Shown here in pieces: positions 9,232 to 49,815 of a stretch of 64,000 bases of DNA. The first letter of the stretch is position 1. Every line of letters starts with the position of its first letter. The stretch lies in assembly GCA_016186695.1 (NCBI GenBank), contig JACPLC010000002.1, positions 31,335 to 95,334 on the forward strand. Direction: 5' to 3'. The notes beneath the pieces are model-generated. The model was given only the letters and a program-made list of their open reading frames with translations. It was not told where the DNA came from and did not search any database. Both the position numbers and the translations under genes were made by a program. The stretch comes from Candidatus Kaiserbacteria bacterium (GTDB taxonomy: Bacteria > Patescibacteriota > Minisyncoccia > Phycocordibacterales > UBA2100).

Positions 9232-9253
9232 ATATAGTGACGATACTACCTCT

Positions 9254-18836: not shown

Positions 18837-19382
18837 CTAGTCAATTTTTGACTCGAGTTCTTTGAGATATTTTTCTGCGAATGCGCGGTGAGGATGATTT
18901 TGGATCATATCTTTTGAGCCGAGGGCGAGCATTTCTTCGCAGGTGAAGAACCGTTTGCCCTCGCTCTCGGCGATTACTCCTCTCGGTTCACATGCGACGA
19001 AGACGGACAGTCCGCCGATACCGGATTCTTCGACCATCCATTTGTGGATATCGAGCGCTCCTTTGTACTCAACGTCGACTCCAAGCTCTCCTCGCGCCAC
19101 TCGCGAGCACGTTTCCTGTATGCTCTCCGACACTTTTCCGAATCCGCCCGGAATATGAAAAAGGCCTTTGTGCGCAGGAATTGTTTCGCCCTCGTAACGG
19201 GTAAGGAGAATGTGAGGTACCTTTTGCTTTTTATCAACGATAACGAGCTCGAATGCGGGCAAGGTGAGCGTGCGGTGGAGCTCCTGCCATGCCAGCAGCG
19301 GTACCCAGTAATCGTTCTCTTGAATCTTCTTGAGGAGTCGTTTCAGCTCTTCGCTCTCTGCTTCCGTAAACGTGTCAGTCAT
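18837..19382 (-). CDS. NUDIX hydrolase
   Basis: Nudix box GGFGKVSESIQETCSRVARGELGV fits GX5EX7REUXEEXGU. ATGA overlap with the upstream gene. Confidence 0.75.
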   Translation of the reverse strand: MTDTFTEAESEELKRLLKKIQENDYWVPLLAWQELHRTLTLPAFELVIVDKKQKVPHILLTRYEGETIPAHKGLFHIPGGFGKVSESIQETCSRVARGELGVDVEYKGALDIHKWMVEESGIGGLSVFVACEPRGVIAESEGKRFFTCEEMLALGSKDMIQNHPHRAFAEKYLKELESKID

Positions 19383-20170
19383 TGTTCGTGATTTGCCGGT
19401 GTCTTTATTTCATAGAACGGTGCGCCGATCTCGAACGCTACTCTATTTTTCGCCGGAATGCGCTCCTGCATCTGAATGTCGCGCAGCTCCAGCGTGCGAC
19501 GTCCCATTTCCTCGAGCCCGAATTCTTGTTCACGGCCCTGTCGTATTGCGGATTCTCTGTCCCATACACGCCCATTCGCCGCTTTCATGTCGGCGATCCA
19601 TTCGTCTTTGACATTGATGCCATCACTGCGAAATGCACCTACTACCTTCGAGTAGAACGCGTATTCACGCTCGAAGGATGGATAATTTTTATTGCCTTTG
19701 AGACGCTCTAGCTTAAGTGCGGTAATGGTGAGACGGTCGACAGTCTCATGGAGGGGCAGTTTGTATGGCGTTTCAGCCGGTATCTGTTCTCCAGTGTCGA
19801 AAAAATCAGTGCCAAGCACCTCGGCCATTTTTGCGCGCTTCACGATGCGTTCGTCGTTCAGATCACGTAGCTGAACTGCAAGTTTGCCCACGTTCTCATT
19901 TGAGAGTTTGTTCTTCTTTGCGTTGCGGATGGCCTCCTCGACGTCCCAGAGTCTTCCATTCACCTCCTTCATGGTGGCGATCCACTCATCGTTGAGCGGG
20001 ACGCCGTCTTTGCGGTATGCATCCAAAACTTTCTTCCAAAACGCGGTTTCGTTCGCGATGGATTGCCGGTTCTCGTCATTTTCGGCTCGTTCATGCTTCA
20101 GTTCGATAATGGTGAATTTGTCGATGGCATCGAGGAGAGGGACCTTGAGATCGCTGTTAAGGTATTTCAT
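19379..20170 (-). CDS. Hypothetical protein built from two tandem ~125-aa repeats
   Basis: Repeat 1: ..DKFTIIELKHERAE..ETAFWKKVLDAYRKDGVPLNDEWIATMKEVNGRLWDVEEAIRNAKKN. Repeat 2: ..DRLTITALKLERLK..EYAFYSKVVGAFRSDGINVKDEWIADMKAANGRVWDRESAIRQGRE. Charged and helical; no family recognised. Confidence 0.5.
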   Translation of the reverse strand: MKYLNSDLKVPLLDAIDKFTIIELKHERAENDENRQSIANETAFWKKVLDAYRKDGVPLNDEWIATMKEVNGRLWDVEEAIRNAKKNKLSNENVGKLAVQLRDLNDERIVKRAKMAEVLGTDFFDTGEQIPAETPYKLPLHETVDRLTITALKLERLKGNKNYPSFEREYAFYSKVVGAFRSDGINVKDEWIADMKAANGRVWDRESAIRQGREQEFGLEEMGRRTLELRDIQMQERIPAKNRVAFEIGAPFYEIKTPANHEQ

Positions 20171-20324
20171 GGAAAACCAGTGTACCCGGTTGTAGATGGT
20201 AGCGAAAGAGGTTTCTGTAACTCGGCAGATTGCTGATGCGCTGTCAATGTCGATTTTACGCCAGAGCTAGGTGATTTGCACGAAGTGCATCGCTACCATT
20301 CACAACGGGGTGTACCATAGCGTG

Positions 20325-21263
20325 ATGCTTAATCTCGAAATGTTGATCAAAGAGGAACTGCTTCCACTTCGGCTTCCCTCGTTTGTCGAAAAAACACACG
20401 AGCAGCATATAGCGTGGCGCGCATACGGATTCGGGGCATGGCGTCGCGGTGAGGTGAGTTTGCTCGAATGTGTGGAGAATCTTATGCCGGGACGTTTTAA
20501 ATCTCCGGAGCTTCAACACAAGCTCCAAGCCCTTCTCGACCGCGAGCTCGAGGGTATTTTTGAACGTGCAGGTCTCTATCAAGAGGTACCGACGCTCTTC
20601 GAAAAGCCGTTTATTGCCACGAGCCCACAGAGATTCAAGAATTGGCTTGTCGCACTTCGGCTTATCAACGAAGTAATCTTGCAGGATGAATACCGCGCGC
20701 GAGGGCGTATTACGGAAGATTCGATCGTGATAGATGCCGGAGCGAATATCGGCACGTTTAGCGTGTTTGCGGCGACGCTCGCGTCACGCGGGAAGATATA
20801 TGCGTTCGAGCCGGCGCGATCGACCTTTGATACACTCGAAAAAAATCTGGGAACCTACGCGAACGCTGTCGCGGTACAAAGTGCGCTCGGGGATCGTTTA
20901 GGCGAGACGGAGCTCCTGATCGAGAATTCCTCCGGCGAAGGAAATACGCTCACGGAATCCGGCATGAGCGGATCATATAGCGGCAAAGAAGAAGTTCCCA
21001 TCACGACCATCGACGCGTTCGTCCACGGGCAGAAACTTTCTGGTGTTGATTTCATCAAGGTTGACAGCGAAGGGTTCGAGAAGCAAATCCTCGAAGGTGC
21101 AACGGAGACGATAAAAAAATATCGTCCCGCTCTCTCACTCTCCGCATACCACAAGCAAGGGGATCCGGCGCGTCTCACGGCGCTCATCAGCAGCTATTCT
21201 CCTCACTATCGATTCGAACTTAAATCAAGCCCCGAACTCGATCTCATCTGCGACGCGAGGTAG
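20325..21263 (+). CDS. FkbM-family SAM-dependent methyltransferase
   Basis: ..VIDAGANIGTFSVFAATLASRGKIYAFEPARSTFDTLEKNL..DFIKVDSEGFEKQILEGA.. Start taken at MLNLEMLIKE (the maximal ORF starts at 20271). Confidence 0.7.
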   Translation: MLNLEMLIKEELLPLRLPSFVEKTHEQHIAWRAYGFGAWRRGEVSLLECVENLMPGRFKSPELQHKLQALLDRELEGIFERAGLYQEVPTLFEKPFIATSPQRFKNWLVALRLINEVILQDEYRARGRITEDSIVIDAGANIGTFSVFAATLASRGKIYAFEPARSTFDTLEKNLGTYANAVAVQSALGDRLGETELLIENSSGEGNTLTESGMSGSYSGKEEVPITTIDAFVHGQKLSGVDFIKVDSEGFEKQILEGATETIKKYRPALSLSAYHKQGDPARLTALISSYSPHYRFELKSSPELDLICDAR

Positions 21264-22095: not shown

Positions 22096-22878
22096 TCAAC
22101 GTTGGCTATTATTGCCTGTCTCAGGGATCGTTTTCGGCCTCTTTATGACCGAGACGCCCTTTCTCTTGACCACCTGCGAGGCGCAGAGGTTTGCGAAGGC
22201 GATCGCTTCTTTGATGTCTTCTGTTTCGGCAAAGCGCACGAGGAGTGCCGCAAAGAAGCTATCACCGGCACCTGTCACGTCTTTGACCTCAACAGATTTG
22301 ACGCCGTATGTCTTGCCACGGAACGAAACGCCCTCGCCGCCGCGCGTGCAGATGATCTTGCGGTCGAGATTGCGTGGGATAGGTAGTGAGTGGTCGTATT
22401 CGAATTTGTTTATCTTGATGTAGTGGGCATTATCGAGGAATCTTCCAATACGTTTTTTCGTATCCACGAACACAGAAGGGTGATTCTTGCAGATGTACCG
22501 GATGTCGTCATGGGCCAGAAACCCTTTGTTGTAATCGGAGATACCCACAAGATCGTATTTTTTCAGCGGGATTTTCTTTACGTTCACACGCGGATAAGAG
22601 TGTTTTGAGTCGACGCGGAAGAAGGCTTGCGGGGTTTTCTCGTGCATGAAGCGTGTCTTGGTGATGGCGCGCCAGTTCTTGTTCGTCGCTATGTCGCACC
22701 ACTGGCGGAGTGCTTTTACGTTCCGCTCGACATTTTTTGCCATCCCCGGATTCTGTGTTTGTTTTGTAACGTGCAGAACGGGTACAGGAATGTCCGGCGC
22801 AAGCCGTATGGTGTCGCAGTAGACGAATACATCGCGGCAGCTCTCTCCGATGATGAGTATGCGCTTTTTCTTTTTCAT
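22096..22878 (-). CDS. D-glycero-beta-D-manno-heptose-7-phosphate kinase (HldA / RfaE domain I-like PfkB kinase)
   Basis: N-terminal KRILIIGESCRDVFVYCDTIRLAPDIPVPVLHVTKQTQNPGMAKNV matches the HldE kinase vervspEAPVPVv..GGAaNVa signature. PfkB motif DVTGAGDSFFAAL. Confidence 0.65.
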   Translation of the reverse strand: MKKKKRILIIGESCRDVFVYCDTIRLAPDIPVPVLHVTKQTQNPGMAKNVERNVKALRQWCDIATNKNWRAITKTRFMHEKTPQAFFRVDSKHSYPRVNVKKIPLKKYDLVGISDYNKGFLAHDDIRYICKNHPSVFVDTKKRIGRFLDNAHYIKINKFEYDHSLPIPRNLDRKIICTRGGEGVSFRGKTYGVKSVEVKDVTGAGDSFFAALLVRFAETEDIKEAIAFANLCASQVVKRKGVSVIKRPKTIPETGNNSQR

Positions 22879-23900
22879 ACAATGGTATACGACGGCGCGA
22901 GGTGCAGTTCCGCAAAGGTAAGGGTTTTCTTGACCATTGGCTTCTTCATAGCACGAAGTATCGCGTTTGCGATATCAACCTTTGTCGGGTACCAGTTTGC
23001 GGTAAGGATCGTTGAGGTCGGGCAGGGAACATTGGGGGCTGCAAGTACCACCGGTCTTTGTTTGAGGGTACACGATTTCATAACACCTGCGACAATCTCG
23101 GACCCCACACCAAACGCCTCGCTCGTCGTATCGATGCAAAGAAGTCGTCCGGTCTTCATCACCGATTTTCTTATAGTGTCGTGATCGATCGGGTTGATAC
23201 TCACGACATCTATGAGCTCGACACTGATTTTTCTCCCGATGAGCTCGAGTGCCTGCAGAGAATCCACAAGACCGTCGCCATATGCGACTACTGTGAGGTC
23301 TTTTCCTTTGCAGAGGACTCGCGCTTTTTCGAGCGGCACCTCGAACATGCGTTTAGGCACGTCCTGCTTGGTCTGGTAAAGCCATCGCGGTTCCAGAACG
23401 AGAACAGGATTCGGGTCGCGCACCGCGGAAATAAGCAAGCCCTTCGCCATGTGCGGTGTTGAGGGGATGACTACTTTTAGGCCCCGAACCGCGCCGTACA
23501 TCGCATAGAGGGCTTGGGAGTGCTGCGGACCGTTGCCCCACTGGCGGCCCACGACGATGCGAACAGTGAGCGGTACGGGATTGCCCCCGCCGAACATGTA
23601 GTTCCATTTTGCCGCTTGCGTAAACATCTGGTCGGAGGCAAGAAGACTGAATTCAACGCGGTCGTGGTGAACGATGGGGCGCAGTCCGGACATTGCTGCG
23701 CCCACCGCGAGTCCGGTGAGAGCCGCCTCCGACGTCGGCGTATCGAGCACGCGGTGCGGATACTTTTTGGCAAGGTCCGTCGTCGTCCCGCCTGCGCCCT
23801 GCGGGACGCCTAAGCCGAGCACAAAGACGCGCTTATCACGCAGGAGTAGCTGTTCTGTTGCTTCTTTCAAAGCGTCCGCGTATTTGATTATCCGGGCCAT
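22875..23900 (-). CDS. ThDP-dependent dehydrogenase E1 component beta subunit-like (transketolase-like pyrimidine-binding plus C-terminal domains)
   Basis: ..RVLDTPTSEAALTGLAVGAAMSGLRPIV..QWGNGPQHSQALYAMYGAVRGLKVVIPSTPHMAKGLLISAVRDPNPVLVLEPRWLY.. ATGA overlap with the kinase gene. Confidence 0.8.
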   Translation of the reverse strand: MARIIKYADALKEATEQLLLRDKRVFVLGLGVPQGAGGTTTDLAKKYPHRVLDTPTSEAALTGLAVGAAMSGLRPIVHHDRVEFSLLASDQMFTQAAKWNYMFGGGNPVPLTVRIVVGRQWGNGPQHSQALYAMYGAVRGLKVVIPSTPHMAKGLLISAVRDPNPVLVLEPRWLYQTKQDVPKRMFEVPLEKARVLCKGKDLTVVAYGDGLVDSLQALELIGRKISVELIDVVSINPIDHDTIRKSVMKTGRLLCIDTTSEAFGVGSEIVAGVMKSCTLKQRPVVLAAPNVPCPTSTILTANWYPTKVDIANAILRAMKKPMVKKTLTFAELHLAPSYTIV

Positions 23901-24043
23901 AAAATTTATCGTGCGTACCCGGTTAGTACAATTTCGAATAATTCCTGCTGTGGCTCTACCTGCGAATGTTGCGCCGCCATGAGAGTGCCATTTTTTATTG
24001 CTGTCAGCTGTTGAATGTTCATACGAAGCGATTCGAAATTGTC

Positions 24044-25030
24044 CTACCGGGCGTACATATCGGTGTAGAGTTCGATTTTCTTGGGATACGGCGATTTCTC
24101 TGCAAACGCAATGTCTTTCCGGACCCTCGTGCGTAGTGTGTTCTCCAGCGAAGAAAGTCTTTTTTCTGTGACACCAATACCCAACAACTCATTGTGCAGT
24201 TTTTTCAACGAATCGCTTTCCTGCCGCTTCTCGGCCGTGTCTTCGTTGCGGTATCCTTCTTCCATGAGGGGCGTGCTATGCGCCATATGACGGTACGTCA
24301 TGCACTCAAGGACCGCCGGCTCACTCTTTTCTCTGATCGATTTGACGAGCGAGAGCGCTTTTTTGTGCACATCGTGGTAATCATTCCCGTCTGCCTGCTC
24401 GTAGCGAGCGCCCAATCCTTCGACGATCTTTTTGACGTCGTAGTTCACGGAGCGGCGGTTCTTGATGTATGAGTTGATTGAAAAGAGATTGTTCTCAATG
24501 ACGAGGAGGAGCGGCAGCTTGTAGAGTGCCGCAAGGTTGTACGTCTCGTAAACGACACCCTCTTCGGAGGCACCATCGCCGTAGAAGGCGACCGTGACGG
24601 TGCCGCGCTTATTGTATTTTTGTTCGAAGGCAACTCCTGCAGAGATCGGAACCACGCTACCGAGGAGAGGAGTCGAGCCGACGAAGTTCACCTCTTTCGC
24701 GATCATATGCATTGAGCCGCCCTTGCCGTGTGCCGAGCCGTTTGCCTTTCCGAGGAGTTCGCACACCATTTTGCGAAAGTTACCCCCCTTGGCGAGGTAA
24801 TGGCCATGGGAGCGGTGGTTGCCCATGACCTTGTCGCCCTTTTGAAGCGCGTCGCACACGCCCACGGCGACCGCTTCCTGCCCGATGTAGAAATGGACCA
24901 TGCTGAATATTTTTTTATCCATGTAGAGCTTCACGAGCTCCTCTTGCGCGACTCGGATGGAAAGCATTCTTCGATACGCCTTGAGGAGCGCGTTCTTCTC
25001 GGCGTTTTTTTTACTCTTTTTTACCGTCAT
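24044..25030 (-). CDS. ThDP-dependent dehydrogenase E1 component alpha subunit-like
   Basis: ThDP-binding motif FYGDGASEEGVVYETYNLAALYKLPLLLVIENNLFSI (GDG-X-NN) and E1alpha-type YRHMAHS loop. Confidence 0.8.
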   Translation of the reverse strand: MTVKKSKKNAEKNALLKAYRRMLSIRVAQEELVKLYMDKKIFSMVHFYIGQEAVAVGVCDALQKGDKVMGNHRSHGHYLAKGGNFRKMVCELLGKANGSAHGKGGSMHMIAKEVNFVGSTPLLGSVVPISAGVAFEQKYNKRGTVTVAFYGDGASEEGVVYETYNLAALYKLPLLLVIENNLFSINSYIKNRRSVNYDVKKIVEGLGARYEQADGNDYHDVHKKALSLVKSIREKSEPAVLECMTYRHMAHSTPLMEEGYRNEDTAEKRQESDSLKKLHNELLGIGVTEKRLSSLENTLRTRVRKDIAFAEKSPYPKKIELYTDMYAR

Positions 25031-26052
25031 AGGTCTACCATGATCCGATTCGCTTTCCCTTCGCGCATCATCGTAATCGCATCATTTATCTTGTCGAGCG
25101 CCGTACGATGTGTGATGAGGAGAGATGTATCGAGGGTCTTCGCATACTTCTGTATGTACCGCCCGATGTCTCTCGCCGGCGCAAACTGGCCTCCCTGTGT
25201 CGCTTTTATCATTTTTCCTTCGCCGCCAAAAAGGTGGACCGCATTCATTATCTCCACACTTGCCCCCGGCTTCGGTTGGCCGACCAAAATGTAGCGTCCA
25301 CTGCCCGCAAGAAGGGGAAGCGTGTCCCGAATGCTCTCAGCGCTTCCTGATGTCTCGACGATAACGTTTACATCTTTGATCCCCGCTTTCCCGAGAGCTT
25401 CTTTGATATCTTCTTTTGCGCTATTGAAGAAGTGTGTCGCACCAAGTGACTTGGCCATCGTCTCTTTATCATGAATATCGAGAGCGATGATTGGATTTGC
25501 GCCGGCGAGTGATGCCGCTTTCGTGAGAGAGGCACCGAGCCCTCCCACGCCGACCACAAGCACGCTTTCGCCCCGCTGCACGTTCGCTTCGTTTTCGATC
25601 GTCGCAAGTGCCGTCGAGAGACCGCAACCGAGAAGAGCGCAAAAGTCGTTCGGCGTATCTTTAGGTGCTACCGTGAGCCTGTTTTCAGAGACGATCGAGT
25701 ATTCGCTCAAGGTCGTTACCTTGCCACTCGACATTTTTCTGCCTTTGTACATGTATGAGGGGAAATCTGATTCGATACCTTCGCCCTTCCGCCAATGCAT
25801 CACGACCTTGTCGCCTTTTTTTACGGTCGTAACACCCTCGCCGACCTTCTCCACGATGCCGCATCCCTCATGGCCGAGAAGATGAGGCACAAATTTTGCA
25901 TTGCCCTTGTAGCCGGCGATCTCCTGCAGCTGCGAGCCGCAAACCCCGCTCACGAGGATCTTTACGAGCACCTGACCATTGCCGAGCGGACCAAGCTCCA
26001 CTTCCGAAATAACAAGGGGAGCGTCAATAGTCTCCAACACGGCGGCTTTCAT
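25027..26052 (-). CDS. Zinc-dependent alcohol dehydrogenase (MDR family)
   Basis: GHEGCGIVEKVGEGV (catalytic Zn), CGSQLQE, NAD-binding GVGGLGASLTKAASLAG. Overlaps the E1alpha start. Confidence 0.8.
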   Translation of the reverse strand: MKAAVLETIDAPLVISEVELGPLGNGQVLVKILVSGVCGSQLQEIAGYKGNAKFVPHLLGHEGCGIVEKVGEGVTTVKKGDKVVMHWRKGEGIESDFPSYMYKGRKMSSGKVTTLSEYSIVSENRLTVAPKDTPNDFCALLGCGLSTALATIENEANVQRGESVLVVGVGGLGASLTKAASLAGANPIIALDIHDKETMAKSLGATHFFNSAKEDIKEALGKAGIKDVNVIVETSGSAESIRDTLPLLAGSGRYILVGQPKPGASVEIMNAVHLFGGEGKMIKATQGGQFAPARDIGRYIQKYAKTLDTSLLITHRTALDKINDAITMMREGKANRIMVDL

Positions 26053-26116: not shown

Positions 26117-26860
26117 CTATTCTGCGGAGAATGATGCTGCGGCTGCTTCCTCGGCCGGAAGCATCACTGATTTCTGCGGAGTTCCTCGTATTTTGAAAGA
26201 GTCGTATTCCTCGGGCGTAAGCGTGAACTCGTACTCTTTTCCTTGCGCGTCGTAGCACTTGGTCCACGACTGCTCGCCGATCTCCTGCGCGGCTATCATG
26301 CCCGTGGTCGAAGCAACTGCCTCGCCGAGGAAGTATCCCTCCTCCATATGTCCGGAAGTGGTGTCGTACAGAGGGGCGGTATACGACATCAGACATTGCA
26401 GCTTCACTTCGACGAGCTCGTCGGCCGAGACAGATGGGGTTGTAGATGCTTCTGTTTGAACACTCGGTGAGCTTTCTGTTGTCACGTGTACAGATTCTGC
26501 CGGAGGCTCCGCAGTGGAAGTTGCAACAGCAGGAGATGTCGTCTCTGTTGTGCTCGCAGTGTCCGCGGGTGATGTGGTGGCCGTAGCCGATGAAGTTGTC
26601 ACGACAGATTCTTCAGGGGTTGACGTTGCCGCACCAAGTACGGTTGGTTCCGGAGATATTGCGGGATCAGCCGTCGCTTGTTCGGTCGTTGATACCGGCG
26701 CAGAATCTGCGGTATCGGCGGGAGTGGTAGTTCCTAACAGCAACTCGGTGGAACTTGCCACAACCTGCGCCAAAACAGGTCGAACCACAAAAAATCCAAG
26801 CACGACCAATGCAAGAATCGCGAAACCGAGCCCTATAGAAACTACAATGTTGCTTTTCAT
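26117..26860 (-). CDS. Membrane-anchored Thr/Ser/Pro/Ala-rich (mucin-like) protein with a C-terminal globular domain
   Basis: N-terminal signal-anchor MKSNIVVSIGLGFAILALVVLGFFVV. About 130 aa of low-complexity T/S/P/A/E (..TTSSATATTSPADTASTTETTSPAVATSTAEPP..). C-terminal ~90-aa domain with Cys (..LQCLMSYTAPLYD..WTKCYDAQGKEYEF..). Confidence 0.5.
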   Translation of the reverse strand: MKSNIVVSIGLGFAILALVVLGFFVVRPVLAQVVASSTELLLGTTTPADTADSAPVSTTEQATADPAISPEPTVLGAATSTPEESVVTTSSATATTSPADTASTTETTSPAVATSTAEPPAESVHVTTESSPSVQTEASTTPSVSADELVEVKLQCLMSYTAPLYDTTSGHMEEGYFLGEAVASTTGMIAAQEIGEQSWTKCYDAQGKEYEFTLTPEEYDSFKIRGTPQKSVMLPAEEAAAASFSAE

Positions 26861-26874
26861 GTGATTAATATTGC

Positions 26875-27351
26875 CTAATAAAATGCTAATAATGATGACG
26901 ATGTCGTAAGTCGGTTGGCGTAGTCCCAGAGGTACGTCGTCGTTTGTCCATCGGTTGTCTTTTGCGCGAGGTTGCCGTTCGCATCGTACATGTACGTCGT
27001 GGTACTCACTCCGTTTGAGATTTCAGTCACCGCGTGCGGATTCGCATATCCAGTACCTCCATATGTGTACGTGCTTGAGGCTGTTCCACTTCCGCTCCAG
27101 AGCGCCAGCATGCTCCCCAGCGTGTCGTACTCATACTGCTGCTTGTATGGCAGAGAGTCCGCTGCCGTCGTGGAAGCGGAGAGGAGACGGTTCAGGGCAT
27201 CATACGAGAACACCGTCGTCGCGCTTGAGCTTGCCGCGGCGGGATTTGCGAGCTGCGTGATGTTGCCGAAGGATTTGTACAAGCGTATAGCGCGATATGC
27301 TCGCCACATCACAGCAAGAGATTCGGGGATATTTTCAGTTGATGTTTTCAT
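26875..27351 (-). pseudogene. Rhs/YD-repeat core fragment: a displaced partial duplicate of the adjacent rhs gene, lacking the DPxGL motif and a toxin tip
   Basis: About 120 aa (..NITQLANPAAASSSATTVFSYDALNRLL.ASTTAADSLPYKQQYEYDTLGSMLALW..YANPHAVTEISNGVSTTTY.YD.NGNL.QKTTD..TTTYLWDYANRLT) are near-identical to main-gene residues encoded at about 28804-29280. Both ends diverge (N-term MKTSTENIPESLAVMWRAY.., C-term ..TSSSLLAFY*). Confidence 0.55.
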
Positions 27352-27387
27352 TGTTTAAAAGTATCTGACACCATTATCCAAACTCCA

Positions 27388-27603
27388 TTATCTGAATAAC
27401 CAAGTTAATAAGATAAATATGCCAATGATCAAATTCGTCAAAGCTTGGAAGCGTGCAAATCTTATCGTGCCTTCGGTAGTTTCGCTCTGTTTCCATAGGT
27501 TGTGTCTTACCCAGTTGAAGAATTTTTTACTAAAGAGTCCGAGGGCTCCAATAATTGTGAAAAGGAGTCCAGCCAGAAGAATGACGATATCTTGATTCAT
27601 CAT
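27388..27603 (-). CDS. Small two-TM membrane protein, candidate immunity protein for the Rhs C-terminal toxin
   Basis: 71 aa; MMNQDIVILLAGLLFTIIGALGLF..(TM1)..TNLIIGIFILLTWLF (TM2). Immediately downstream of the rhs stop on the same strand, 21-bp gap, AT-richer than the surroundings. Confidence 0.45.
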   Translation of the reverse strand: MMNQDIVILLAGLLFTIIGALGLFSKKFFNWVRHNLWKQSETTEGTIRFARFQALTNLIIGIFILLTWLFR

Positions 27604-27624
27604 TTTTAGTTGCTACGTTAATAA

Positions 27625-30600
27625 TTATGGGCCAGATTTCGACTTTCCGGCTGCTCGTTGAATCAGTGCGTTGAGCTGTGCGCGTATTACATTGATTCTT
27701 GCTTGTATGGCCGCGATTTGTGCCGCAAAAGAGTTACTGGAAACAGAGCCGCCTGAACTGGAACCTCCTTGAGCAGATTGCTGAGATTCAGATGGCCGGG
27801 TCGATTGTTGTTGTGCCGGTCGGTTGTTGCCGCTTCCACCTCCCGAAGAGCTAGGTGGTGGCGAGGATAACGGCGTGCCGGAGATAACTGCCTGTGCAAT
27901 TTGTTGGGGCGTGAGGTTTCCAGAATCAAGGTTGCGACATTCATGCTTTGCACAATATACATCTATTCCTGCAAGCGTAATGCCGGCAACATTTATAAGA
28001 GCGCCATATCCCGTCCACCCATAGAGATATGATGCGGCAGATCCCACAGCAAACAATGATAAATCGACATTTCTCTGTGCTTTATCGGCTTGTATTTCAG
28101 CAGTGCTTTCGTACGAAGAAACAACCCATGCATCATCCACTGATCTCGCTGTCTGCACACCGCTTACGCCTTCGAGAATCGGATAGAAGTAAGTTTCGAT
28201 TCCGGCTCTAGTAATTGTAAGTAGACCACTCGGATCCGAATTCGATATTGGGTTGTCTCCAGCATATGAATAACTATTTAACAGTTGCGGATTTGCGAGT
28301 AGCGTCCTGGCCGGTTTGCCCATGAGTCGCTCGATGTTTGGCGTTCCGATGGCAAGATGTAGAGGGTCTTGACTAAGGAATTGTCCGCGTTCTCCGTCAT
28401 AGTACCTAGCGTTTAGGTATGACAGACCACTTCCTTCGTCGAAGAATTGTCCAATGAATTCTCTGTTGGAGATATCTGTGCCGGAGTCGATTCTTGTACT
28501 GCCATACGGATAGTAGTCGAGCGTCTGCATCACGGCAGTGTTGTTTGCATTGGAGACGATGTTCGTGCTCCCCAGATGATCTGGATGTATATACCGCACT
28601 TCCGCGGTTCCCGTTGCACTGCCGTTCGTGAAGGCCTGATCTATCGTCGAAAGCAACGTATCACTGCTGAATATATACTCGGTCGTGGTCGCGTAGTTAG
28701 TCCCACTTCTCGTGCTTGACGCCACCGAGTACCATTTACTCGCATACGTCGTTGTTGCCGTCGTCGACGCTATCTGATACACCCTCGCCCCGAAGGCGTC
28801 GTAGCCGTAGGTTGTGGTCGAATTGTTGACGCCGAGTGCTGTCAGCCTATTCGCATAGTCCCACAGATACGTTGTCGTCACATTGTCTGTGGTCTTTTGA
28901 GAAAGGTTTCCATTATTGTCATATGAATACGTTGTCGTTGAGACGCCATTTGAAATTTCAGTTACAGCATGGGGATTGGCATAGCTCGTGCCAGAGTAGG
29001 CATACGTGCTGGAGGCCGTCCCGTTCCAGAGAGCCAACATACTCCCGAGCGTGTCGTATTCATACTGCTGCTTGTATGGCAGAGAGTCCGCGGCGGTCGT
29101 CGATGCTTGCAGCAACCTATTCAACGCATCGTACGAGAACACCGTCGTCGCGCTTGAGCTCGCCGCAGCAGGATTCGCGAGCTGTGTGATGTTGCCCGCG
29201 GGATCGTACGTGTATGAGAAATCCTGGACGTTGGAGCTGTTCGCCAATGTTTTTAGGTTCGTCAATCTGTACAGGGCATCGGCGTTGTAGGTGCGCGTGG
29301 TCGAGGCGCCGCTTCCGAAGACTGTCGTGATGGATTGACTCGTCGGCGCATACGTGAGGCTGCTCACGATGTCGCTGAACGATCCGCCTGAAGGTTTGCG
29401 CTGTATTCTGCTCGGCAATCCGGCGTTGTTGTAGCCCACGGTGACGGCTGTGCTGTTCGGGTATGTCCACGAGGTAACATTGCCCTGCCGGTCATACGAG
29501 TATTGCATGTTGTATGCATTGTTTAAGATCGTGGTTGTTGCGGAAAGAATGCGGCCGAGTATGTCGTAGCTATTCGTCGACGTCGCGGACGTCGATGAGG
29601 CGGAGCAAAGGTAGCCGATGCCGTTGGTACAGCTGTCATAGACGAGGGTGACTTCGGTGCCGGAGGCTCCCGTGTAGTTCTCGGTCAGCATGCGGTTGAG
29701 GGCGTCGTATGTGCGGTTCACTGTTTGAGCCTTCGGATCAGTTTGGGACGTGAGATTGCCCTGATGATCGTAGGTGTACGACCAGATGCCGAAGGTCGTG
29801 TCGGTGGCGTTGTGCAGGTCTTGCGCCGAGAGACGCCTGCCGAGGCCATCGTACGTGAAGCCGCGGACATTGCTCCTGCTGTCGGTCGTCGTTGCGAGAT
29901 TATTCTGCACGTCGTACGAATGCGTCGTCGTGGCGAAGACCGGTACCGTTCTCACCTGATTGCCGACACGCGCTTCCACCGCTACCTCGATCCAGTCGCT
30001 GTTCGTGGTATGTGTCCAACCGAGCGATTGAGCGCTGGATGTTGACGTTTTCAGAACGCTCGCGCCATGAGAGAAGTTGTTGGAGCATTGGTTGGTCAGT
30101 TGTTGTATTTGAGGCGAGTTTGCAGTCAGAGTCTGGCTCAAGTTGTACCAGAGATTGTCATCCACGATCGAATTATCACTTTGTGTGGTAATCGAGATTG
30201 AAGGATCGCCCGTTGTGCCGGTATTGAACTTCATTGCCCCGATTGGGTTCACGGTGTCCGTTCCGGTGTACGAGACGGCCGAAACGTACCCACCGCTATT
30301 CGGAGAAAACGTGACAACAACGTTGTTTGAGCCGCTCGTGGGATTAGTTAGGTACCACGTTCCGACTCCTCCTGTTGAAGTGGCGAATGTCATGTCGACG
30401 CCGGCGTACTTCACGGTTGATACAAAGGGAGAATCTATCTGAACAAGTAGCAGCGTCGACGTGGCGCTGACAGTCTTTGAGAGCTCTACAGAGGCCACCG
30501 ATGAGCACATGACAGTATTAGCGGGGCCGTTCGTCCCGGTTTCGATCGATATCGAGGTACCCACCGCTGTCGTCGTCGCGGCGTACAACCCCCGTTCGAC

Positions 30601-33600
30601 GACAGTCGCGAGATTGCCGAATGCGTCATACCAATACACTTTTGTGTTGCCGTTCGGATCGGTCGCCGTCGTTGTCCATTTCGCGTACGAGTTGGTTTTG
30701 GTGCCGACGGCGTTTGCTTCAGACGTGAGACGCTTTAGTGGGTCGTAGAGGTAGTTCGTATAGAGAGCCGTGGTAGCAGTTGGCGTCGTATACGCCGTGC
30801 TAGAGGATGAGTATGGAAGAGTGGACGAAGCGAGAAGTCCCACCTGACTATACTTTCGATCTGTGACGAGGAAGATATTGGAGTCGGGCGATTCTTTGCG
30901 CTCTTGGAACAACCGATTGAATCCATCGAAATACTGGTATGTGTCCACTGTGTTTCCCGGAAAGAGCCAATCGCTTCGCTGAATCGAGCTGGGAGTCGTC
31001 GTGCTGTCGATGTACGTGTAGACAGTGGTCGTCGCGTACGTTGAAGGCGTCGATGTCGAAGACACGTCTACTTCTTTGAGACGCCCGACTCCATCGAATA
31101 CGTTTTTCATCAGTGACTCGTTCGGGTCGTTCTTCCATCGTACTTTTCCGTTTGCATAGTTGTATAGAAGTTGCGTCTTCTGGAGTAGCGCATTCGTGGA
31201 CGTGGCAACGTACAAGTTGTTTGCATCGTAGACATACGACGTTGCGTTGCCATTGCGATCCGTCGAGGTTGCGACAAGGCCGTACGAATTATGCGTCTTG
31301 GTGGAGCTCGCATACATGGTGCCGCTGATCCAGTCTTCCTGCTTCGTGTTGTTGCCGACGTTTACCGACCCGAACGCGAGCGAGTCGTAGTAGAACTTTT
31401 GATCCGTGCTCGTCGCACCGTTGTAGTCGAGGAGCGTCTTTTGGGTAGGTACACTCATGTTCACTGTGCTGCTCGCTGCGTATGATATGTTCGTCGTGCG
31501 TTTGTCCGTTCCACTGTCGGTGAATTCGGCACTGTCCGTATTGCCGCTGACCTCTCCGTACTCGATAGTTTGGATCAGGTCATTCGTAGTCGAGGAGTAA
31601 TGGTAGTCGATCGCTTTGTCGCGGTGGGTGCCGTCCGAGGCATAATCCAGCGTCACCTGCCTACCGAGCCCTATGAACGTGCTATCGCCGTGCTCAACCG
31701 TGTCCCACCGATAGAGCGCGCGCTGTTTGAGATTGTTGGAAGTATCGGAAACGTCTTTGCGCGTAGGTCGGCCGATGCGGGCGAGCGAGTTCTGCCCGTA
31801 GTGTGTCGTGACGATCGAATCGGGATTCGTTACTGTCACCGGTGAAAAGCCGGCGAACCGCCTGTCGCGCACCGTCGTGTTGTACCAGTGCCCGTTCGAG
31901 TATGAATACGTCGTTGTCGCATAGTTGCCGAGACCATCATGGGTCACTGTCGTACTTGCGGCAAGCACTCTGATCGCCGACCCGGGATTCCCGGCCATCT
32001 TGTATGCGATCGCGATGCCGCCGCCTTTGGGATTCGTAACGTTCGTAATCACATCCTGTTGCATTTGCCCGTTGCCATAGAAGTTCACGAACTCGTTGTA
32101 TGCGATCGTGCTCGTTCCCGCGTTGCAGGTTGCTATGTACGCGGGCAATGTGTACCTCGTGCTTGTCGCCCAACCGCTGCCGGTATTGAGGTATACGGCC
32201 TTTACGTCCGCGACTTCGGTGCCGACGCATCCTCCGCCTGATGCGCCGAGGTACGAGCGGACGAGATCCGTGAGACCGTCACCATTCATATCCATGAAGC
32301 GGATACCACGGTCGTAGTAATTGCCGTTCGATAGGTACGTTGTTGATGTGGCGAATGTCCAGTGCGAATCGGGGACGCTGTTCCACCCGCTGCCATTGTT
32401 CAGTAACACATACGTACTGCTTGCGGCGGAATAGACCCAGTCGTCGAGGTTGTCGCCGTTGATATCAACGAGTTGCGACGCGGTTTCCGTGGGCGCAGTC
32501 GAGGGGAACGATTTCGCTGCGGGAAATACCGTTACCGTGCGGTCCCACGCGGATCCGTTGCCGAGGTACGTGGACGTGGCGAGTTCATTGGTGAGCGCCG
32601 TGAGGTAGTCGGGCAAGCCATCGCCGTTCACGTCTCCGAAGAGGCCGCCAGTGAGGTAGAGGCCGCCACTCGTCTTTTTCGCGAAGGTGGGAATGTTTCC
32701 CGTGTAGCTCGTTGACGTTGCCGACCAGCCATACGTGTCAGTGGTAGTCGAATATTGGTTGTTGTAGATGGCGTAATCAGAGGTGCCGGCAGAATCGTCG
32801 ATCCATCCACGCACCGCGTCTGCTTTTCCGTCGCCGTTGATGTCGAGATAGCGCACGCCACGCTCCAGAGGCACCTGATTCGGATATCCCGTACTTGCCC
32901 AGTACTCGGGAGGCGCGTGGCTCGCGTCCGGCACGGCAATAGCGCTTGCCTCGTTGTCGTGCCACATGAAGCCATTGCCCGTCCCGGGCATGAAGAGATT
33001 CACGTCGTTGATCCCGTTGCCGTCGGTGTCTGCGACTGCGTAGTCTGCTCCGTCCACGTTCTGTATCGCCGGTCCGAAGTATTGGGTGGATGAGCTCGCA
33101 TAACTGAATGTCATCGCAGGGAGCGTAACGAGTGTATTGTTGTCGTCGTAGCCCTGCTGCACGATGCTTGTGAGGAGAGAACGAAGGCTGTTGTTTCCAG
33201 TCCCATACCCCAGGAGATACTTTCTGACTGTCGATCCGTTCACTGAAGCATCGATTTCATAAATTCTTTTAGTTGTGGTCGCGGAAAATCCGGATGCGTA
33301 GCTGATGCGAGCGTCGGGCCGCGTCGTCGTTGCAAACGTGATCGTGAACGGCCCGTCGGTCGAGCCCTTACCTGTGTATGTGATCGTATCGGGGTATAGA
33401 GTATTATTATCTCTTAAATATGTGTACTCGATGTAGTTGTCGTTTGTGTCGCGGATCTCTTGGAGCATCCAGCGGTAGGTGTTCGTCGACGTGCCGGTGC
33501 CCGTGTCGTACATCCTGCCGGAATCATCGGAGCCGAACGTGTATCGCGTTCCTCTTTTGTCGTACATCGTCCACGAGGTGGTGGCGAAGGTGTACACGTT

Positions 33601-34707: not shown

Positions 34708-34776
34708 GAAAGATCTTTCTACGCGCGCGAGTATATAACGACTTCTCGAGCCGTGATTTGAGAAAATCGAGCCCAT

Positions 34777-35054
34777 TTTCTTTATTTCTGTTAATTACCT
34801 GTGAATTGCAAATTCAGAACTTGGCGAGAGCAAAATCGGGCAATTTGGAATTCTTCCAGATCGTGTGCGACGAGATGAAGTCTCGGCTGGCCGAGATGTA
34901 CTTAGGGTGCAAAAACTGAAATGAGACAAAGTTGCTGTGCATAGGCGCGCTGGTTTTCCACAGGACTTGCCTTAGCGGTATTTCAATGTTTTGTCTGGAA
35001 AAACAACATTCTATAAAGCGGGCTTCGGTCTACGTGCTATCATTCGCCCGTTTT
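34777..35054. promoter_or_regulatory. AT-rich divergent intergenic region between rhs (minus) and the methyltransferase gene (plus)
   Basis: Markedly lower GC than the flanks. ttatatact lies about 20 nt upstream of the rhs ATG on the minus strand. No coding potential with homology. Confidence 0.3.
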
Positions 35055-36005
35055 ATGGACAAGCCCGCTGTGTGCTCATTGTGTAAAGCAGCAAGCCCGC
35101 GTGCGACCGGTCGCACGCATACAGATGGTCTGCAGTACACGCAATATAGTTGTGCCTCGTGCGGCGTGCAGTTTTGGTGGCCCCTGAAAAATCCGGGCTC
35201 CGCGTGGTATAGCGCGCACGCGACGTATGGCGCACGCAACCACGATCCGGTTTGGGGGCCGACGTGGAACCATAAGAAGACGCTTCGATTATTGAGCGAT
35301 CAGCAGGGAAGGGTGCTCGATGTGGGCTGCGGCATCGGCAACTTTCTCGAGCTTGCTGTGAGCCGCGGATGGGAGTGTGCAGGCATCGACATCGATCCTG
35401 ATGCCATCGAAGCCACAAGACAAAAGACGGGCATAGCCGATCTCGAAGTCGTCGACGTCGTATCGTACGCCAAACAACATCCGGAAAAGAAATTTGATCT
35501 CGTGACCTTTTTCGATGTGCTCGAGCACATCGACAATCACAACGAATTTATCGAGTCGGTTAAGAGTCTTTTAAAACCGGACGGATACGTCGCGATGAGC
35601 ATGCCCTACCGTGAACACGCGCCATGGCTCATGAAGGGCGATCTTCCTCCCGCGCACCTGACGAATTGGGACCGCACATCGCTCAAGCGTTTTCTGGAAG
35701 CGCGCGGCTTCGAGGTCGTCTACCTCCGGCGCGGCGCGGCCGAGCTCTGGACGCTCGTTATGAAAATGCGCTTCAAGTATGGAAAGAATCTTTCGTTCGA
35801 TGCGGTGCGCGCGGTACGAAGATCTGTCGGCGATACACAAGTGCGGCAAGGCAAGCGGCCGCTCCTTGTGCGTATCGTCCACGCGCTTGCGAAGGTGAAA
35901 GACGCGGTGCTCTTTGGCATTCCTGCAATAGTTGTCTGGCTCTACATGCTTCCGTCGCGCCGTCGCTACTACGACCTCTTTGCCGTTGCTCGCAAACGTT
36001 CGTAG
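35055..36005 (+). CDS. Class I SAM-dependent methyltransferase with an N-terminal zinc-ribbon (CxxC..CxxC)
   Basis: MDKPAVCSLCK..YSCASCGV (zinc ribbon); ..RVLDVGCGIGNFLELAV.. (motif I); ..FDLVTFFDVLEHIDNHNEFIESVKSLLKPDGYVAMSMP.. The maximal ORF starts at 34932. Confidence 0.65.
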   Translation: MDKPAVCSLCKAASPRATGRTHTDGLQYTQYSCASCGVQFWWPLKNPGSAWYSAHATYGARNHDPVWGPTWNHKKTLRLLSDQQGRVLDVGCGIGNFLELAVSRGWECAGIDIDPDAIEATRQKTGIADLEVVDVVSYAKQHPEKKFDLVTFFDVLEHIDNHNEFIESVKSLLKPDGYVAMSMPYREHAPWLMKGDLPPAHLTNWDRTSLKRFLEARGFEVVYLRRGAAELWTLVMKMRFKYGKNLSFDAVRAVRRSVGDTQVRQGKRPLLVRIVHALAKVKDAVLFGIPAIVVWLYMLPSRRRYYDLFAVARKRS

Positions 36006-36023: not shown

Positions 36024-37268
36024 ATGCACTACGCGCCTTGGATGCGTTTGGTCGAGCGGTATGTGGGCTCACTGACGTGCTTTTTCTTTACGCTCATCCA
36101 CAGGCTCCGACCGACGCCGAAAGATAAGACGGTGAGGAAAATCCTTGTGATCGAGCTTGTCGAAATGGGGGCAGCGGTGATGGCATATTCCTCGCTCCGA
36201 TATATAAAAGACAAAATTCCCGACGCCGAGATCCACGCACTCTGTCTCGCGAGCAAAAAGGATTCGTGGCAGATGCTCGACCTGATCGGGGAGGGGAATG
36301 TGCACGTCATCGACGATACGAGCCTTCGCGCGCTGTTTTTTTCTATCGTCGCACAGACGCAAGCGCTCTCCAAAAAGAAGTTCGATCTCATCATCGATTT
36401 TGAACTCTTCTTGCGCATCTCGGCCATCATCGCATTCCTCATTCGCGCAAAGTTTCGTGCAGGCTACTTTCGCTACACGATGGAAGGAATGTACCGCGGC
36501 GATTTTTATGACATCCGCTGCAATTTCAACCAAAACATGCATATCGCCAAGAATCACCTCGCGCTCACCAAGTCCGCCGTCGGCTTGAGTGGGGGTTACT
36601 ACAACTATGCAGGCAGGATCGAGAAAAGTGAGATCGTGGTGCCGTCGTACAAGTCTGATGCCAGTTTGAGGCAACTCGTTCGTGAGCGTCTCAAAGCGCT
36701 CGGACATAGAGGTGAGCCTTTAATCGTCGTCGCGCCGACAGTAGGAAGAGCGCTCTCGATACGCGACTATCCAAAGGAGTTGTATGTGGAGGCCATACGC
36801 AAACTTCTTGCGGCGTTTCCGGTGCACACGGTGGTTCTCGCAGGCACTGAAGAGCATCGCGCCACGTGTGAGTACGTGCGGAGCAGCGTGGGCGGGCGAT
36901 GTCTCAATATGGTGGGAGAGACTCGCACGCTTGCCGAACTTATCGAACTCTTCGGCATGGCAGAGCTTCTCATAAGCAACGACAGCGGAAACCCACACTT
37001 TGCTGCGATGGTGGGGCTTCCGACGCTCGCCATCTTCGGACCCGAAACGCCGTTCTTATACGGCCCCTTAGGAAAAGCAGTGTGTCTCTACGAATTTTTC
37101 CACACGAGCCCGAGCATCACCGCGTACAACCACAAAAATCCGCCTGTCTTGGTAGACCCCTCGCTTCGGCGTATTTCTCCGGAGCGGATCGCCGACATGG
37201 CACGGATCCTTCTTTCCGGCAAAGCGAAATATGGAACTGTTAACAACGAGATACCATACCTTGTATGA
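36024..37268 (+). CDS. Glycosyltransferase family 9 (ADP-heptose:acceptor heptosyltransferase, RfaF/RfaC-like)
   Basis: 414 aa; ..KILVIELVEMGAAVMAYSSL.. N-terminal GT9 pattern and C-terminal ..LISNDSGNPHFAAMVGLPTLAIFGPETP.. (cf. DSGPMHLAAAlg.P.vaLFGpt.P). Confidence 0.7.
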   Translation: MHYAPWMRLVERYVGSLTCFFFTLIHRLRPTPKDKTVRKILVIELVEMGAAVMAYSSLRYIKDKIPDAEIHALCLASKKDSWQMLDLIGEGNVHVIDDTSLRALFFSIVAQTQALSKKKFDLIIDFELFLRISAIIAFLIRAKFRAGYFRYTMEGMYRGDFYDIRCNFNQNMHIAKNHLALTKSAVGLSGGYYNYAGRIEKSEIVVPSYKSDASLRQLVRERLKALGHRGEPLIVVAPTVGRALSIRDYPKELYVEAIRKLLAAFPVHTVVLAGTEEHRATCEYVRSSVGGRCLNMVGETRTLAELIELFGMAELLISNDSGNPHFAAMVGLPTLAIFGPETPFLYGPLGKAVCLYEFFHTSPSITAYNHKNPPVLVDPSLRRISPERIADMARILLSGKAKYGTVNNEIPYLV

Positions 37269-40073: not shown

Positions 40074-40094
40074 AGAGATGTGGTGGAGGCAAGT

Positions 40095-46626: not shown

Positions 46627-46642
46627 AGCGTACTGTGAGTCT

Positions 46643-49812: not shown

Positions 49813-49815
49813 CTT

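Follow-up and report, generated by a model that had tools for sequence, protein, structure and literature searches.

Described sugar-branching enzymes and the Kaiserbacteria locus

Free-standing pairs of E1alpha and E1beta subunits, among them AviB1/AviB2, Pau11/Pau12, the aldgamycin pair and KbDH, have been proposed or shown to carry an acetyl group from pyruvate over to keto-sugars, with the ketone often being reduced afterwards (PMC4753412, PMC12247030). According to a 2025 review, these E1alpha/beta ("alphaKADH2") branching enzymes belong for the most part to specialised antibiotic pathways, about 120 clusters have been described and no structure has been solved, and branching in lipopolysaccharide (LPS) has been attributed to YerE-like enzymes (PMC12247030). 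Here we describe a four-gene module within 64,000 nucleotides of DNA from a Candidatus Kaiserbacteria bacterium (GenBank assembly GCA_016186695.1, contig JACPLC010000002.1, positions 31,335 to 95,334), a stretch that is referred to throughout as the window. The module codes for a zinc-dependent alcohol dehydrogenase (ADH), an E1alpha/E1beta pair that binds thiamine diphosphate (ThDP) and a PfkB-family kinase, and it most likely makes a cell-surface heptose that is branched or longer by two carbons, in this ultra-small member of the Candidate Phyla Radiation (CPR, or Patescibacteria).

Like AviB1/AviB2, Pau11/Pau12, the aldgamycin pair and KbDH, the module contains a free-standing E1alpha/E1beta pair within a sugar-biosynthetic cluster, without the dihydrolipoamide acyltransferase (E2) and dihydrolipoamide dehydrogenase (E3). 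Whereas pairs of the AviB1/B2 type are found in actinomycete antibiotic clusters and act on nucleoside diphosphate (NDP)-deoxyhexoses or pentoses made by a 4,6-dehydratase, the module is found in Patescibacteria cell-surface glycan clusters, is linked to ADP-heptose genes and has no conserved dehydratase. Its redox partner is also of a different kind, being a dedicated Zn-ADH that lacks the structural-zinc lobe and is sometimes fused to the E1, rather than an aldo-keto reductase or a short-chain dehydrogenase/reductase (SDR). YerE/YerF and ErwE, from the yersiniose and erwiniose pathways, are functional analogues, placing a ThDP-derived acyl branch on a nucleotide keto-sugar of a surface polysaccharide for subsequent action of a reductase (PMC12247030, PMC9306805). 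YerE, however, is a single-chain enzyme of the decarboxylase/acetolactate-synthase superfamily that acts on a CDP-3,6-dideoxy-4-keto-hexose. Literature searches yielded no account of an E1 pair associated with heptose genes or with CPR glycans, and the module would add a variant, with a heptose context and a dedicated ADH partner, to the E1alpha/beta sugar-branching systems, its likeness to AviB1/B2 being drawn here from gene content and context.

An E1 pair without E2 or E3

All four genes lie on the minus strand, as the original prediction had placed them, in the order ADH (26052-25027; 341 amino acids, Pfam ADH_N and ADH_zinc_N), ThDP-binding E1alpha (25030-24044; 328 amino acids, PF00676 at 197 bits), E1beta (23900-22875; 341 amino acids, PF02779 (Transket_pyr) at 95 bits and PF02780 (Transketolase_C) at 81 bits) and a short HldA-like kinase (22878-22096; 260 amino acids, PF00294). 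The four had also been described as translationally coupled; this holds for the ADH/E1alpha and the E1beta/kinase junctions, both of which are 4-bp ATGA overlaps, but not for E1alpha and E1beta, which are set apart by a spacer of 143 bp. The spacer is missing in a related locus with an E1alpha 86% identical to that of the window (L007), where E1alpha and E1beta abut. The ADH-E1alpha-E1beta(-PfkB) arrangement lies far beyond chance, the same order recurring in species-level genomes with E1alpha proteins that are only 55-86% identical to the window E1alpha.

The domain content of the pair, with an alpha subunit of the E1_dh type and a beta subunit composed of Transket_pyr and Transketolase_C, fits the E1 of a heterotetrameric 2-oxoacid dehydrogenase. 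The predicted ThDP-binding motif of E1alpha is present in the translation as GDG-x26-NN, which can be read directly in FYGDGASEEGVVYETYNLAALYKLPLLLVIENN (GDGASEE...ENN), as can the active-site loop YRHMAHS with the catalytic histidine. In E1beta the motifs DTPTSE, with the cofactor-activating glutamate, and QHSQ, with a histidine, are read in the same way. The catalytic motifs of both subunits are conserved across the E1 clades considered here, and the sequence of the active-site loop is clade-specific. Pyruvate dehydrogenase (PDH) is the best-scoring family, and the top-scoring structures are those of human PDH E1, with 156 and 192 bits for the pair, the latter being the best PDB match of E1beta. 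The pair thus resembles PdhA/PdhB in family, structure and the retention of the ThDP motif and the catalytic histidine and glutamate, yet it differs in its clade-specific loop and its lack of E2/E3 neighbours, and both subunits fall below the equivalog cutoffs (E1alpha 291.3 bits against TIGR03182, cutoff 393.85; E1beta 239.6 bits against NF006667, cutoff 321).

Homologs of E2 and E3 were sought by phmmer with queries from annotated operons of S. meliloti, C. difficile, S. epidermidis and R. lusitanum. None were found in the 64-kb window, which extends 22 kb and 38 kb to either side of the operon, nor less than 10 kb away from any of 80 related E1 pairs (L001-L086), while the positive controls (L088, L091-L094) were all recovered. 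The claim that the E1 pair has no E2 or E3 partner is therefore upheld in the window and among its relatives.

Trees of the alpha and beta subunits were built separately by neighbour joining with 100 bootstraps, and included as references eight E1 pairs from annotated plasmid records, six of which have E2 and/or E3 beside them. These references cover a true PDH operon, two pairs annotated as acoA, and E2/E3-linked operons of the aco and other types. All of the glycan-linked pairs stand apart from the reference pairs (95/100 for alpha, 100/100 for beta), so that with respect to these eight references the pair clusters with neither AcoAB nor PDH. Among the glycan-linked pairs the Patescibacteria form one clade (100/100 in both trees), heptose-linked pairs of other phyla a second (96/100 for alpha, 36/100 for beta), and pairs adjacent to DegT aminotransferases a third, which is recovered at 85/100 (alpha) and 100/100 (beta) without a pair from Azospirillum lipoferum (L087) and at 42/100 and 3/100 with it. 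The original prediction had named two observations that would speak against it, namely E2/E3 genes directly outside its window in a canonical acetoin/pyruvate dehydrogenase operon and tight clustering with bona fide AcoAB; neither was made, given the lack of E2/E3 in the 64 kb and near the related pairs and the separation of the glycan-linked clade from the references.

Percent identity was considered as a discriminator and rejected. The window E1alpha shares 39.5% identity with the true PdhA of A. brasilense, a protein with E2/E3 neighbours, which equals the level of the heptose-linked clade, and the PdhA proteins of Azospirillum and Sinorhizobium, likewise beside E2/E3, are 38-40% identical. 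An E1alpha identical to that of the window is annotated in Candidatus Kaiserbacteria. The best 120 relatives of E1alpha are at least 61% identical to it, and those with a named source are mostly Patescibacteria/Parcubacteria. Two further E1 matches lie on Streptomycetaceae plasmids, one within a nonribosomal peptide synthetase cluster and the other on an unannotated record.

Relatives of the pair carry the database names "pyruvate/acetoin dehydrogenase" and "acetoin:DCPIP oxidoreductase", and these would agree with a fermentative or catabolic role, in which E1 acts as a pyruvate or acetoin decarboxylase and the ADH makes ethanol, or in which the two handle 2,3-butanediol and acetoin. CPR bacteria are fermenters, the ADH carries the aspartate of an NAD-type enzyme, and the ADH::E1alpha fusions described below would suit the channelling of a volatile aldehyde such as acetaldehyde. 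There is also a likeness to AcoA/AcoB with 2,3-butanediol dehydrogenase, where a heterotetrameric ThDP E1 is associated with a Zn-ADH and hydroxyethyl-ThDP chemistry takes place on an alpha-hydroxyketone. Unlike the Aco system, however, the window holds no AcoC (E2) or AcoL (E3) gene, no sigma-54 activator of the AcoR type was found among the window open reading frames (ORFs) of at least 150 amino acids that were scanned, and in both trees the pair is separated from the C. difficile operon of the acoABCL type (with E2, E3 and an adjoining sigma-54 activator gene), the S. epidermidis E1-E2-E3 operon and the PDH operons. With the exception of one subclade (L029, L030, L036 and L040), the annotated loci are glycan clusters rather than catabolic ones, and the kinase is often coupled to E1beta. 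The ADH resembles class I/III enzymes, which accept large substrates, rather than the small tetrameric ethanol dehydrogenases, and the same ADH occurs in NDP-heptose tailoring clusters of other phyla. A fermentative role is for these reasons improbable, and because of the missing E2/E3 and the separate phylogenetic position the label "pyruvate/acetoin dehydrogenase" would mislead metabolic reconstructions of CPR bacteria.

The alcohol dehydrogenase partner

The closest families to the window ADH are class I/III ADH, mycothiol-dependent formaldehyde dehydrogenase and N,N-dimethyl-4-nitrosoaniline-dependent ADH, and the nearest structures are those of class I/III. In an alignment to horse-liver ADH (a reference sequence the marker residues of which checked out) the catalytic zinc ligands C46, H67 and C174 and the NAD-type D223 of the Rossmann NAD(P) site are retained in 35 out of 35 ADHs. 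A single deletion of 24 residues has removed C97-C111, and with it the structural-zinc lobe, from all 35; these were drawn from both CPR and non-CPR heptose clusters, to which the deletion is common. The lobe-less subfamily comprises 436 representatives at the 50% cluster level (E 1e-30 or better).

The association with ThDP enzymes extends to gene fusion. In three diverged Patescibacteria genomes ADH and E1alpha are joined in a single ORF of 661-690 amino acids (L012:8322-10307, L021:8957-10942 and L041:8888-10960), and these fusions are only 59-65% identical among themselves. A metagenomic protein of 658 amino acids (P0184) combines the C-subunit of a split transketolase (residues 1-303) with a lobe-less ADH (residues 316-657) that is closest to the ADHs of non-CPR heptose clusters, and split transketolase genes recur in several heptose clusters. 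On the basis of both kinds of fusion and of these recurrent split transketolases, the lobe-less ADH is predicted to be a partner of ThDP two-carbon-transfer enzymes in general.

Heptose genes in the window and in related loci

The original prediction had drawn its heptose link from the kinase, and this link proved stronger than was claimed. All five enzyme types of the ADP-L-glycero-beta-D-manno-heptose pathway are found in the window, together with a glycosyltransferase of family GT9. The HldC-like heptose-1-phosphate adenylyltransferase (39495-40103, minus strand) scores above its cutoff (TIGR02199, 190.1 against 181.5). Scores just below the respective cutoffs are obtained for three proteins coded on the plus strand, the GmhA-like sedoheptulose-7-phosphate isomerase (40032-40610; SIS_2, TIGR00441 205.4 against 209.45), the GmhB-like heptose-1,7-bisphosphate 7-phosphatase (40607-41167; HAD-IIIA, NF006506 159.8 against 178 and TIGR00213 138.8 against 149.6) and the HldD-like SDR, which resembles ADP-heptose 6-epimerase (37265-38164; TIGR02197 235.6 against 274.6). 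The heptosyltransferase-like GT9 protein (36024-37268, plus strand; PF01075 69 bits, cutoff 22) gives weak matches to heptosyltransferase I/II models, and it is preceded by a class I S-adenosylmethionine-dependent methyltransferase (34932-36005, plus strand; Methyltransf_23). What departs from the canonical ADP-heptose pathway is the kinase, which at 260 amino acids carries a deletion, and the additional ADH-E1alpha/beta module, which has no canonical role there. CPR bacteria have neither an outer membrane nor LPS.

These heptose genes have been moved 9-15 kb from the module by a block on the minus strand (26117-34776) that codes for a 247-amino-acid unclassified protein, an orphan RHS fragment and a 2383-amino-acid SpvB/FG-GAP/RHS protein, as assigned by Pfam. 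The region from 26.1 to 34.8 kb is an insertion, outside the system, that split the cassette, because the block is absent between ADH and methyltransferase in two related loci (L007 and L101). In both of these the methyltransferase, GT9 and HldD genes (MT357-GT9-HldD) lie directly beside the ADH, with the methyltransferase divergent from it.

Related loci were collected by alignment of E1alpha, which gave 80 loci from species-representative genomes, with further contigs obtained by exact protein look-up. They were annotated by phmmer with the window proteins, and the counts that follow refer to the 24 well-flanked loci from Patescibacteria. A scan of metagenome contigs seeded with GmhA, a protein too conserved to single out CPR loci, gave matches nearly all from high-GC non-CPR bacteria, and one useful match (L101). 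Within 3.5 kb of E1alpha an ADH is present in 22 of the 24 loci and a PfkB kinase in 18, and in many the kinase is translationally coupled to E1beta. Anywhere in the locus an HldC-like gene is found in half of them (12/24) and GmhA in a third (8/24), with RmlA and DegT in two loci each. Four loci (L007, L008, L027 and L101) contain the contiguous block GmhB-GmhA-HldC-HldD-(GT9-MT)-ADH-E1alpha-E1beta-PfkB, in two others (L098 and L100) the ADH is flanked by GT9 genes, and in three (L003, L098 and L100) FkbM methyltransferases lie between E1beta and PfkB. The CPR loci with Pfam annotation are glycan clusters, with genes of the types GT2, GT4, GT9, FkbM methyltransferase, Wzx/Wzy or Wzm/Wzt, save for the subclade of L029, L030, L036 and L040.

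The placing of the module within a sugar cluster was also sound, the window being a very large glycan-biosynthesis island with many GT4 and PMT_2 enzymes, an ATP-binding cassette exporter and FkbM methyltransferases, and also RmlB (9209-10270) and RmlA (10267-11145), several DegT aminotransferases and Gmd. With RmlB, RmlA, DegT, Gmd and two PseB-like dehydratases at hand, the E1 pair could instead act as an AviB1/B2-type enzyme on another keto-sugar of the island, for example dTDP-4-keto-6-deoxyglucose, with the ADH reducing the acetyl branch to 1-hydroxyethyl and the heptose genes as mere neighbours. All of the characterised E1alpha/beta branching enzymes take NDP-keto-hexoses or NDP-keto-pentoses (PMC4753412, PMC12247030), and the DegT-linked clade, including the pair on the LPS plasmid of A. 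lipoferum, has no heptose genes. The dehydratases of the window are at least 13 kb from the module. Across the CPR loci, however, it is the heptose-type genes that recur: PfkB, HldC and GmhA in the proportions given above, against two loci with RmlA and three with an RmlB-like SDR within 3.5 kb. The embedding of the module in the heptose operon of L007, L008, L027 and L101 likewise argues against an origin of the acceptor elsewhere in the island, and we consider such an acceptor unlikely, albeit the most credible of the alternatives to a heptose-derived one.

Related E1 pairs in other phyla

The second clade of glycan-linked pairs is spread over Planctomycetota, Verrucomicrobiota, Omnitrophota, Proteobacteria, Clostridia and Woesearchaeota, and is found with GmhA, a fused HldC/HldA protein and 4,6-dehydratase-like SDRs; 12 of 21 loci of this clade have an RmlB-like SDR at a distance of 3.5 kb or less, and the usual 4-keto acceptor is plausible for it on the basis of these neighbours. 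An NDP-heptose tailoring cluster of this type is present in a metagenome-assembled genome (MAG) of the Clostridia (L079:201-16036), and similar clusters are found in L049, L053, L062 and L073. The Clostridia cluster contains GmhA, a fused HldC-HldA protein with the domain order swapped relative to HldE, a GDP-fucose-synthase-like SDR, a 4,6-dehydratase-like SDR (225 bits) and several further SDRs. It also contains E1alpha/beta, a C-methyltransferase-like protein with a Methyltransf_13 zinc-binding domain, a split transketolase and a lobe-less ADH. In a Planctomycetales MAG, E1alpha and E1beta are joined in a single ORF of 711 amino acids (L074:9947-12082).

The third clade neighbours DegT aminotransferases. 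Azospirillum lipoferum 4B has on its plasmid AZO_p6 (L087, 45.5-43.1 kb of the record) an oxidoreductase-E1alpha-E1beta-DegT arrangement within an LPS/glycan cluster, which shares the DegT context of this clade and joins it only weakly in the trees. The gene content of this cluster hints at a surface polysaccharide of a Gram-negative bacterium that contains a transaminated sugar with an acetyl branch, and as the host is cultivated it could serve as an experimental entry point.

The kinase

The sole PfkB gene in the window is the kinase of the module. Its best NCBIfam match is rfaE_dom_I (TIGR02198) and its best PDB match is the HldA of B. cenocepacia (4E84), with an N-terminal lid segment aligned at 27 bits. 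The GAGD anion-hole motif and the catalytic aspartate are kept, and DVTGAGDSF can be read directly. Compared with HldA the protein is shorter, having lost an internal segment, and its score of 117.8 bits is far under the TIGR02198 cutoff of 345. The name given to it in the original prediction, heptose-7-phosphate kinase, is therefore supported with respect to family and structure, and is left in doubt by the shortening and the low score. We presume, from these matches, that the enzyme phosphorylates heptose-7-phosphate at position 1 or else acts on a modified heptose.

Two kinds of HldA-like kinase accompany the module, as judged from the window, L097-L100 and L005. Short kinases of 246-260 amino acids have the internal deletion, 107-118 bits on rfaE_dom_I and usually an overlap with E1beta. 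A long form of 306-333 amino acids lies one gene away, that of L005 scoring 267 bits.

The internally deleted kinase, which is the gene most closely coupled to the module, could also act on something other than a sugar. Pyruvate and a small aldehyde would be ligated to a hydroxyketone and reduced by the ADH to a diol, which would then be phosphorylated by PfkB, activated by the HldC-like enzyme and attached as a phosphodiester-linked decoration. Three loci (L098, L099 and L100) with the order ADH-E1alpha-E1beta-(MT)-short PfkB-HldC-like, and no GmhA or GmhB within 10 kb, would be consistent with such a pathway. The HldC-like protein of the window nevertheless passes the cutoff for heptose-1-phosphate adenylyltransferase, the N-terminal lid of the kinase matches HldA specifically, the same module is found in loci where HldA is long and closer to the canonical form (267 bits), and GmhA and GmhB may lie farther off, as they do in the window. 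A pathway to a non-sugar acyloin or diol is accordingly given little probability.

Proposed function in heptose modification

We propose that the E1 pair is an E2/E3-independent carboligase which, together with the ADH, attaches two carbons to a carbonyl derived from a heptose, on the way to a cell-surface glycan. By family membership, GmhA, the short HldA-like kinase, GmhB, HldC and the HldD-like epimerase would produce a nucleotide-activated heptose, which the GT9 enzyme would transfer. From the intact catalytic motifs, the absence of E2/E3 and the gene context, we infer that the E1 heterotetramer would carry out the ThDP-dependent decarboxylation of a 2-oxo acid, most likely pyruvate. As there is no lipoyl acceptor on an E2 nearby, hydroxyethyl-ThDP must either be released or be caught by a carbonyl, and following the precedent of AviB1/B2, Pau11/12, the aldgamycin pair and KbDH the hydroxyethyl carbanion is proposed to add to the carbonyl of a heptose intermediate. 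The product would be an acetyl or 1-hydroxyethyl sugar of nine carbons, either C-branched or chain-extended, and both forms are entertained here, as is an acceptor other than heptose from among the keto-sugars of the island.

The lobe-less, NAD-type ADH would perform a coupled redox step, probably in complex with E1. We favour a role in making the acceptor carbonyl by oxidation of a sugar hydroxyl, because no dehydratase is conserved in the CPR core and because the ADH is the only redox enzyme that regularly accompanies E1, to which it is sometimes fused; in the simplest case a primary CH2OH would be oxidised to an aldehyde and handed directly to E1. Alternatively the ADH may reduce the newly formed acetyl ketone, in the manner of butanediol dehydrogenase. 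Gene identities, conservation, fusions, the separation in the trees and the lack of E2/E3 nearby are thus observed, while donor, acceptor, product and the sequence of the steps are the parts of the scheme that we infer.

Several observations weigh against this proposal. GmhA and GmhB lie within 10 kb of the module in only 8/24 and 3/24 of the CPR loci, and hence the heptose link is frequent but not universal. An RmlB-like SDR is found within 3.5 kb in 3/24, there being no conserved 4,6-dehydratase in the CPR core, and the dTDP-, GDP-, UDP- and CMP-sugar routes of the island could supply other keto-sugars. The kinase falls far under the HldA cutoff, as described above, and it is to this kinase that the module is tightly coupled; none of the models considered explains this coupling well, nor the shortening of the kinase. 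The trees were made by neighbour joining only, with eight reference sequences and no AviB1-type sequences, and the sister relationship of the CPR clade and the heptose-linked clade of other phyla is weak (57/100 for alpha, 40/100 for beta). The loci of the L029, L030, L036 and L040 subclade are nested in the CPR clade, lack both ADH and kinase within the sequence covered and have a non-glycan context, so that the E1 family is not restricted to heptose. One of these (L030:6203-17117) contains, by Pfam, a class I/II aminotransferase, two ATP-grasp/L-amino-acid-ligase genes, NUDIX hydrolases and a D-2-hydroxyacid dehydrogenase, and a second (L029:5805-13216) has a similar context as judged by matching ORF order; from this content the L030-type locus looks like a small-molecule pathway, for an amino-alcohol or peptide, rather than a glycan pathway. 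Taking these points together with the evidence above, we hold carboligation onto a heptose-derived carbonyl as a tentative reading, with a probability a little short of even.

The original prediction had offered a second possibility, a transketolase-like supply of sedoheptulose-7-phosphate. In such a scheme the E1 would, for example, join hydroxypyruvate or another two-carbon donor to ribose-5-phosphate and feed GmhA in metabolically reduced CPR cells, with the ADH preparing donor or acceptor. The module is closely linked to the first committed heptose enzymes, a subunit of a split transketolase is also found fused to its ADH subfamily, several heptose clusters contain genes for split transketolases, and mutants of aceE in E. 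coli can replace DXP (1-deoxy-D-xylulose 5-phosphate) synthase, an example of an E1 that ligates onto sugar-phosphate aldehydes (PMC3424233). Transketolase and DXP synthase do share with the proposed reaction the ThDP-dependent addition of two carbons to a sugar or sugar-phosphate aldehyde, but the alpha subunit of the module is of the E1_dh and not the Transketolase_N type (197 against 23.5 bits), and it probably takes a 2-oxo acid, not a ketose, as its donor. If pyruvate were used, the product would, on chemical reasoning, be a 1-deoxyketose, which GmhA could not isomerise, and the kinase is more closely linked to the module than GmhA. Sister clades of the E1 and the ADH subfamily, moreover, sit in NDP-heptose tailoring clusters with 4,6-dehydratase-like SDRs, amid NDP-sugar tailoring enzymes in Proteobacteria, Planctomycetota and other phyla. 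Proteobacteria, Planctomycetota and the other phyla of the sister clades are expected to have a complete pentose-phosphate pathway, and the presence of the same genes there disfavours a role in precursor supply, which we regard as very unlikely.

A more specific form of the proposed heptose modification is that the lobe-less ADH and its ThDP enzyme form a channelling pair, in which the terminal CH2OH of a heptose or nucleotide-heptose is oxidised to an aldehyde that immediately undergoes two-carbon extension; the ThDP partner may be E1alpha/beta in Patescibacteria and a split transketolase elsewhere. This version is speculative and would have to be called unlikely at present. If it is true, it would provide a previously undescribed way of turning C7 into C9 "higher-carbon" sugars and a new class of E1 reaction, chain extension at an aldehyde rather than branching at a ketone, that is widespread in CPR surface glycans and also occurs in several other phyla.

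Most Patescibacteria have not been cultivated, and many probably live attached to host cells, with surface glycans that are essentially unknown and likely mediate attachment. A conserved heptose-tailoring module in these organisms points to an unusual CPR surface sugar that is open to direct search. It would also extend the E1alpha/beta branching enzymes to the cell-envelope glycans of many phyla, and the hundreds of diverse sequences could be drawn on for biocatalysis of tertiary alcohols or chain-extended sugars.

Neighbouring genes and intergenic features

Beyond the kinase gene the window contains an FkbM methyltransferase (20271-21263, plus strand; Pfam), a 263-amino-acid protein with only sub-threshold Pfam matches to DUF4254 and DUF6165 (19379-20170, minus strand) and a NUDIX hydrolase (18837-19382, minus strand; Pfam). 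The order PfkB-(FkbM)-unk263-NUDIX recurs in L007, L008 and L027, and the 263-amino-acid protein and the NUDIX hydrolase may be part of the pathway, for example in sugar-nucleotide editing. Neither the 263-amino-acid protein nor a neighbouring protein of 264 amino acids has a match in NCBIfam or the PDB. On the other side of the module, the orphan RHS fragment of the inserted block is located at 26875-27351, and the layout of the block recalls a polymorphic-toxin locus placed in a glycan operon.

Two nonulosonic-acid gene sets are present at 44468-59881, each with a PseB/FlaA1-like dehydratase, DegT, NeuB (51184-52239 and 57265-58335) and a CMP-transferase (49048-49812 and 59081-59881). The same region contains a UDP-GlcNAc 2-epimerase, and the nonulosonate content is unusually rich for a reduced CPR genome.

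Promoter-like sites occur at or near the frequency expected by chance (3 seen, 4.7±1.8 expected), as do terminator-like sites (11 seen, 6.3±2.4 expected), and an Rfam scan of 21.5-27.7 kb, which includes the E1alpha/E1beta spacer, gave no match. Spacers of about 120 bp between E1alpha and E1beta are also found in L003 and L024. The spacer of the window contains a 38-codon ORF on the minus strand (23906-24022) that probably lies outside the system; it encodes MNIQQLTAIKNGTLMAAQHSQVEPQQELFEIVLTGYAR, the end of which, TGYAR, is similar to the C-terminus of E1alpha, DMYAR.

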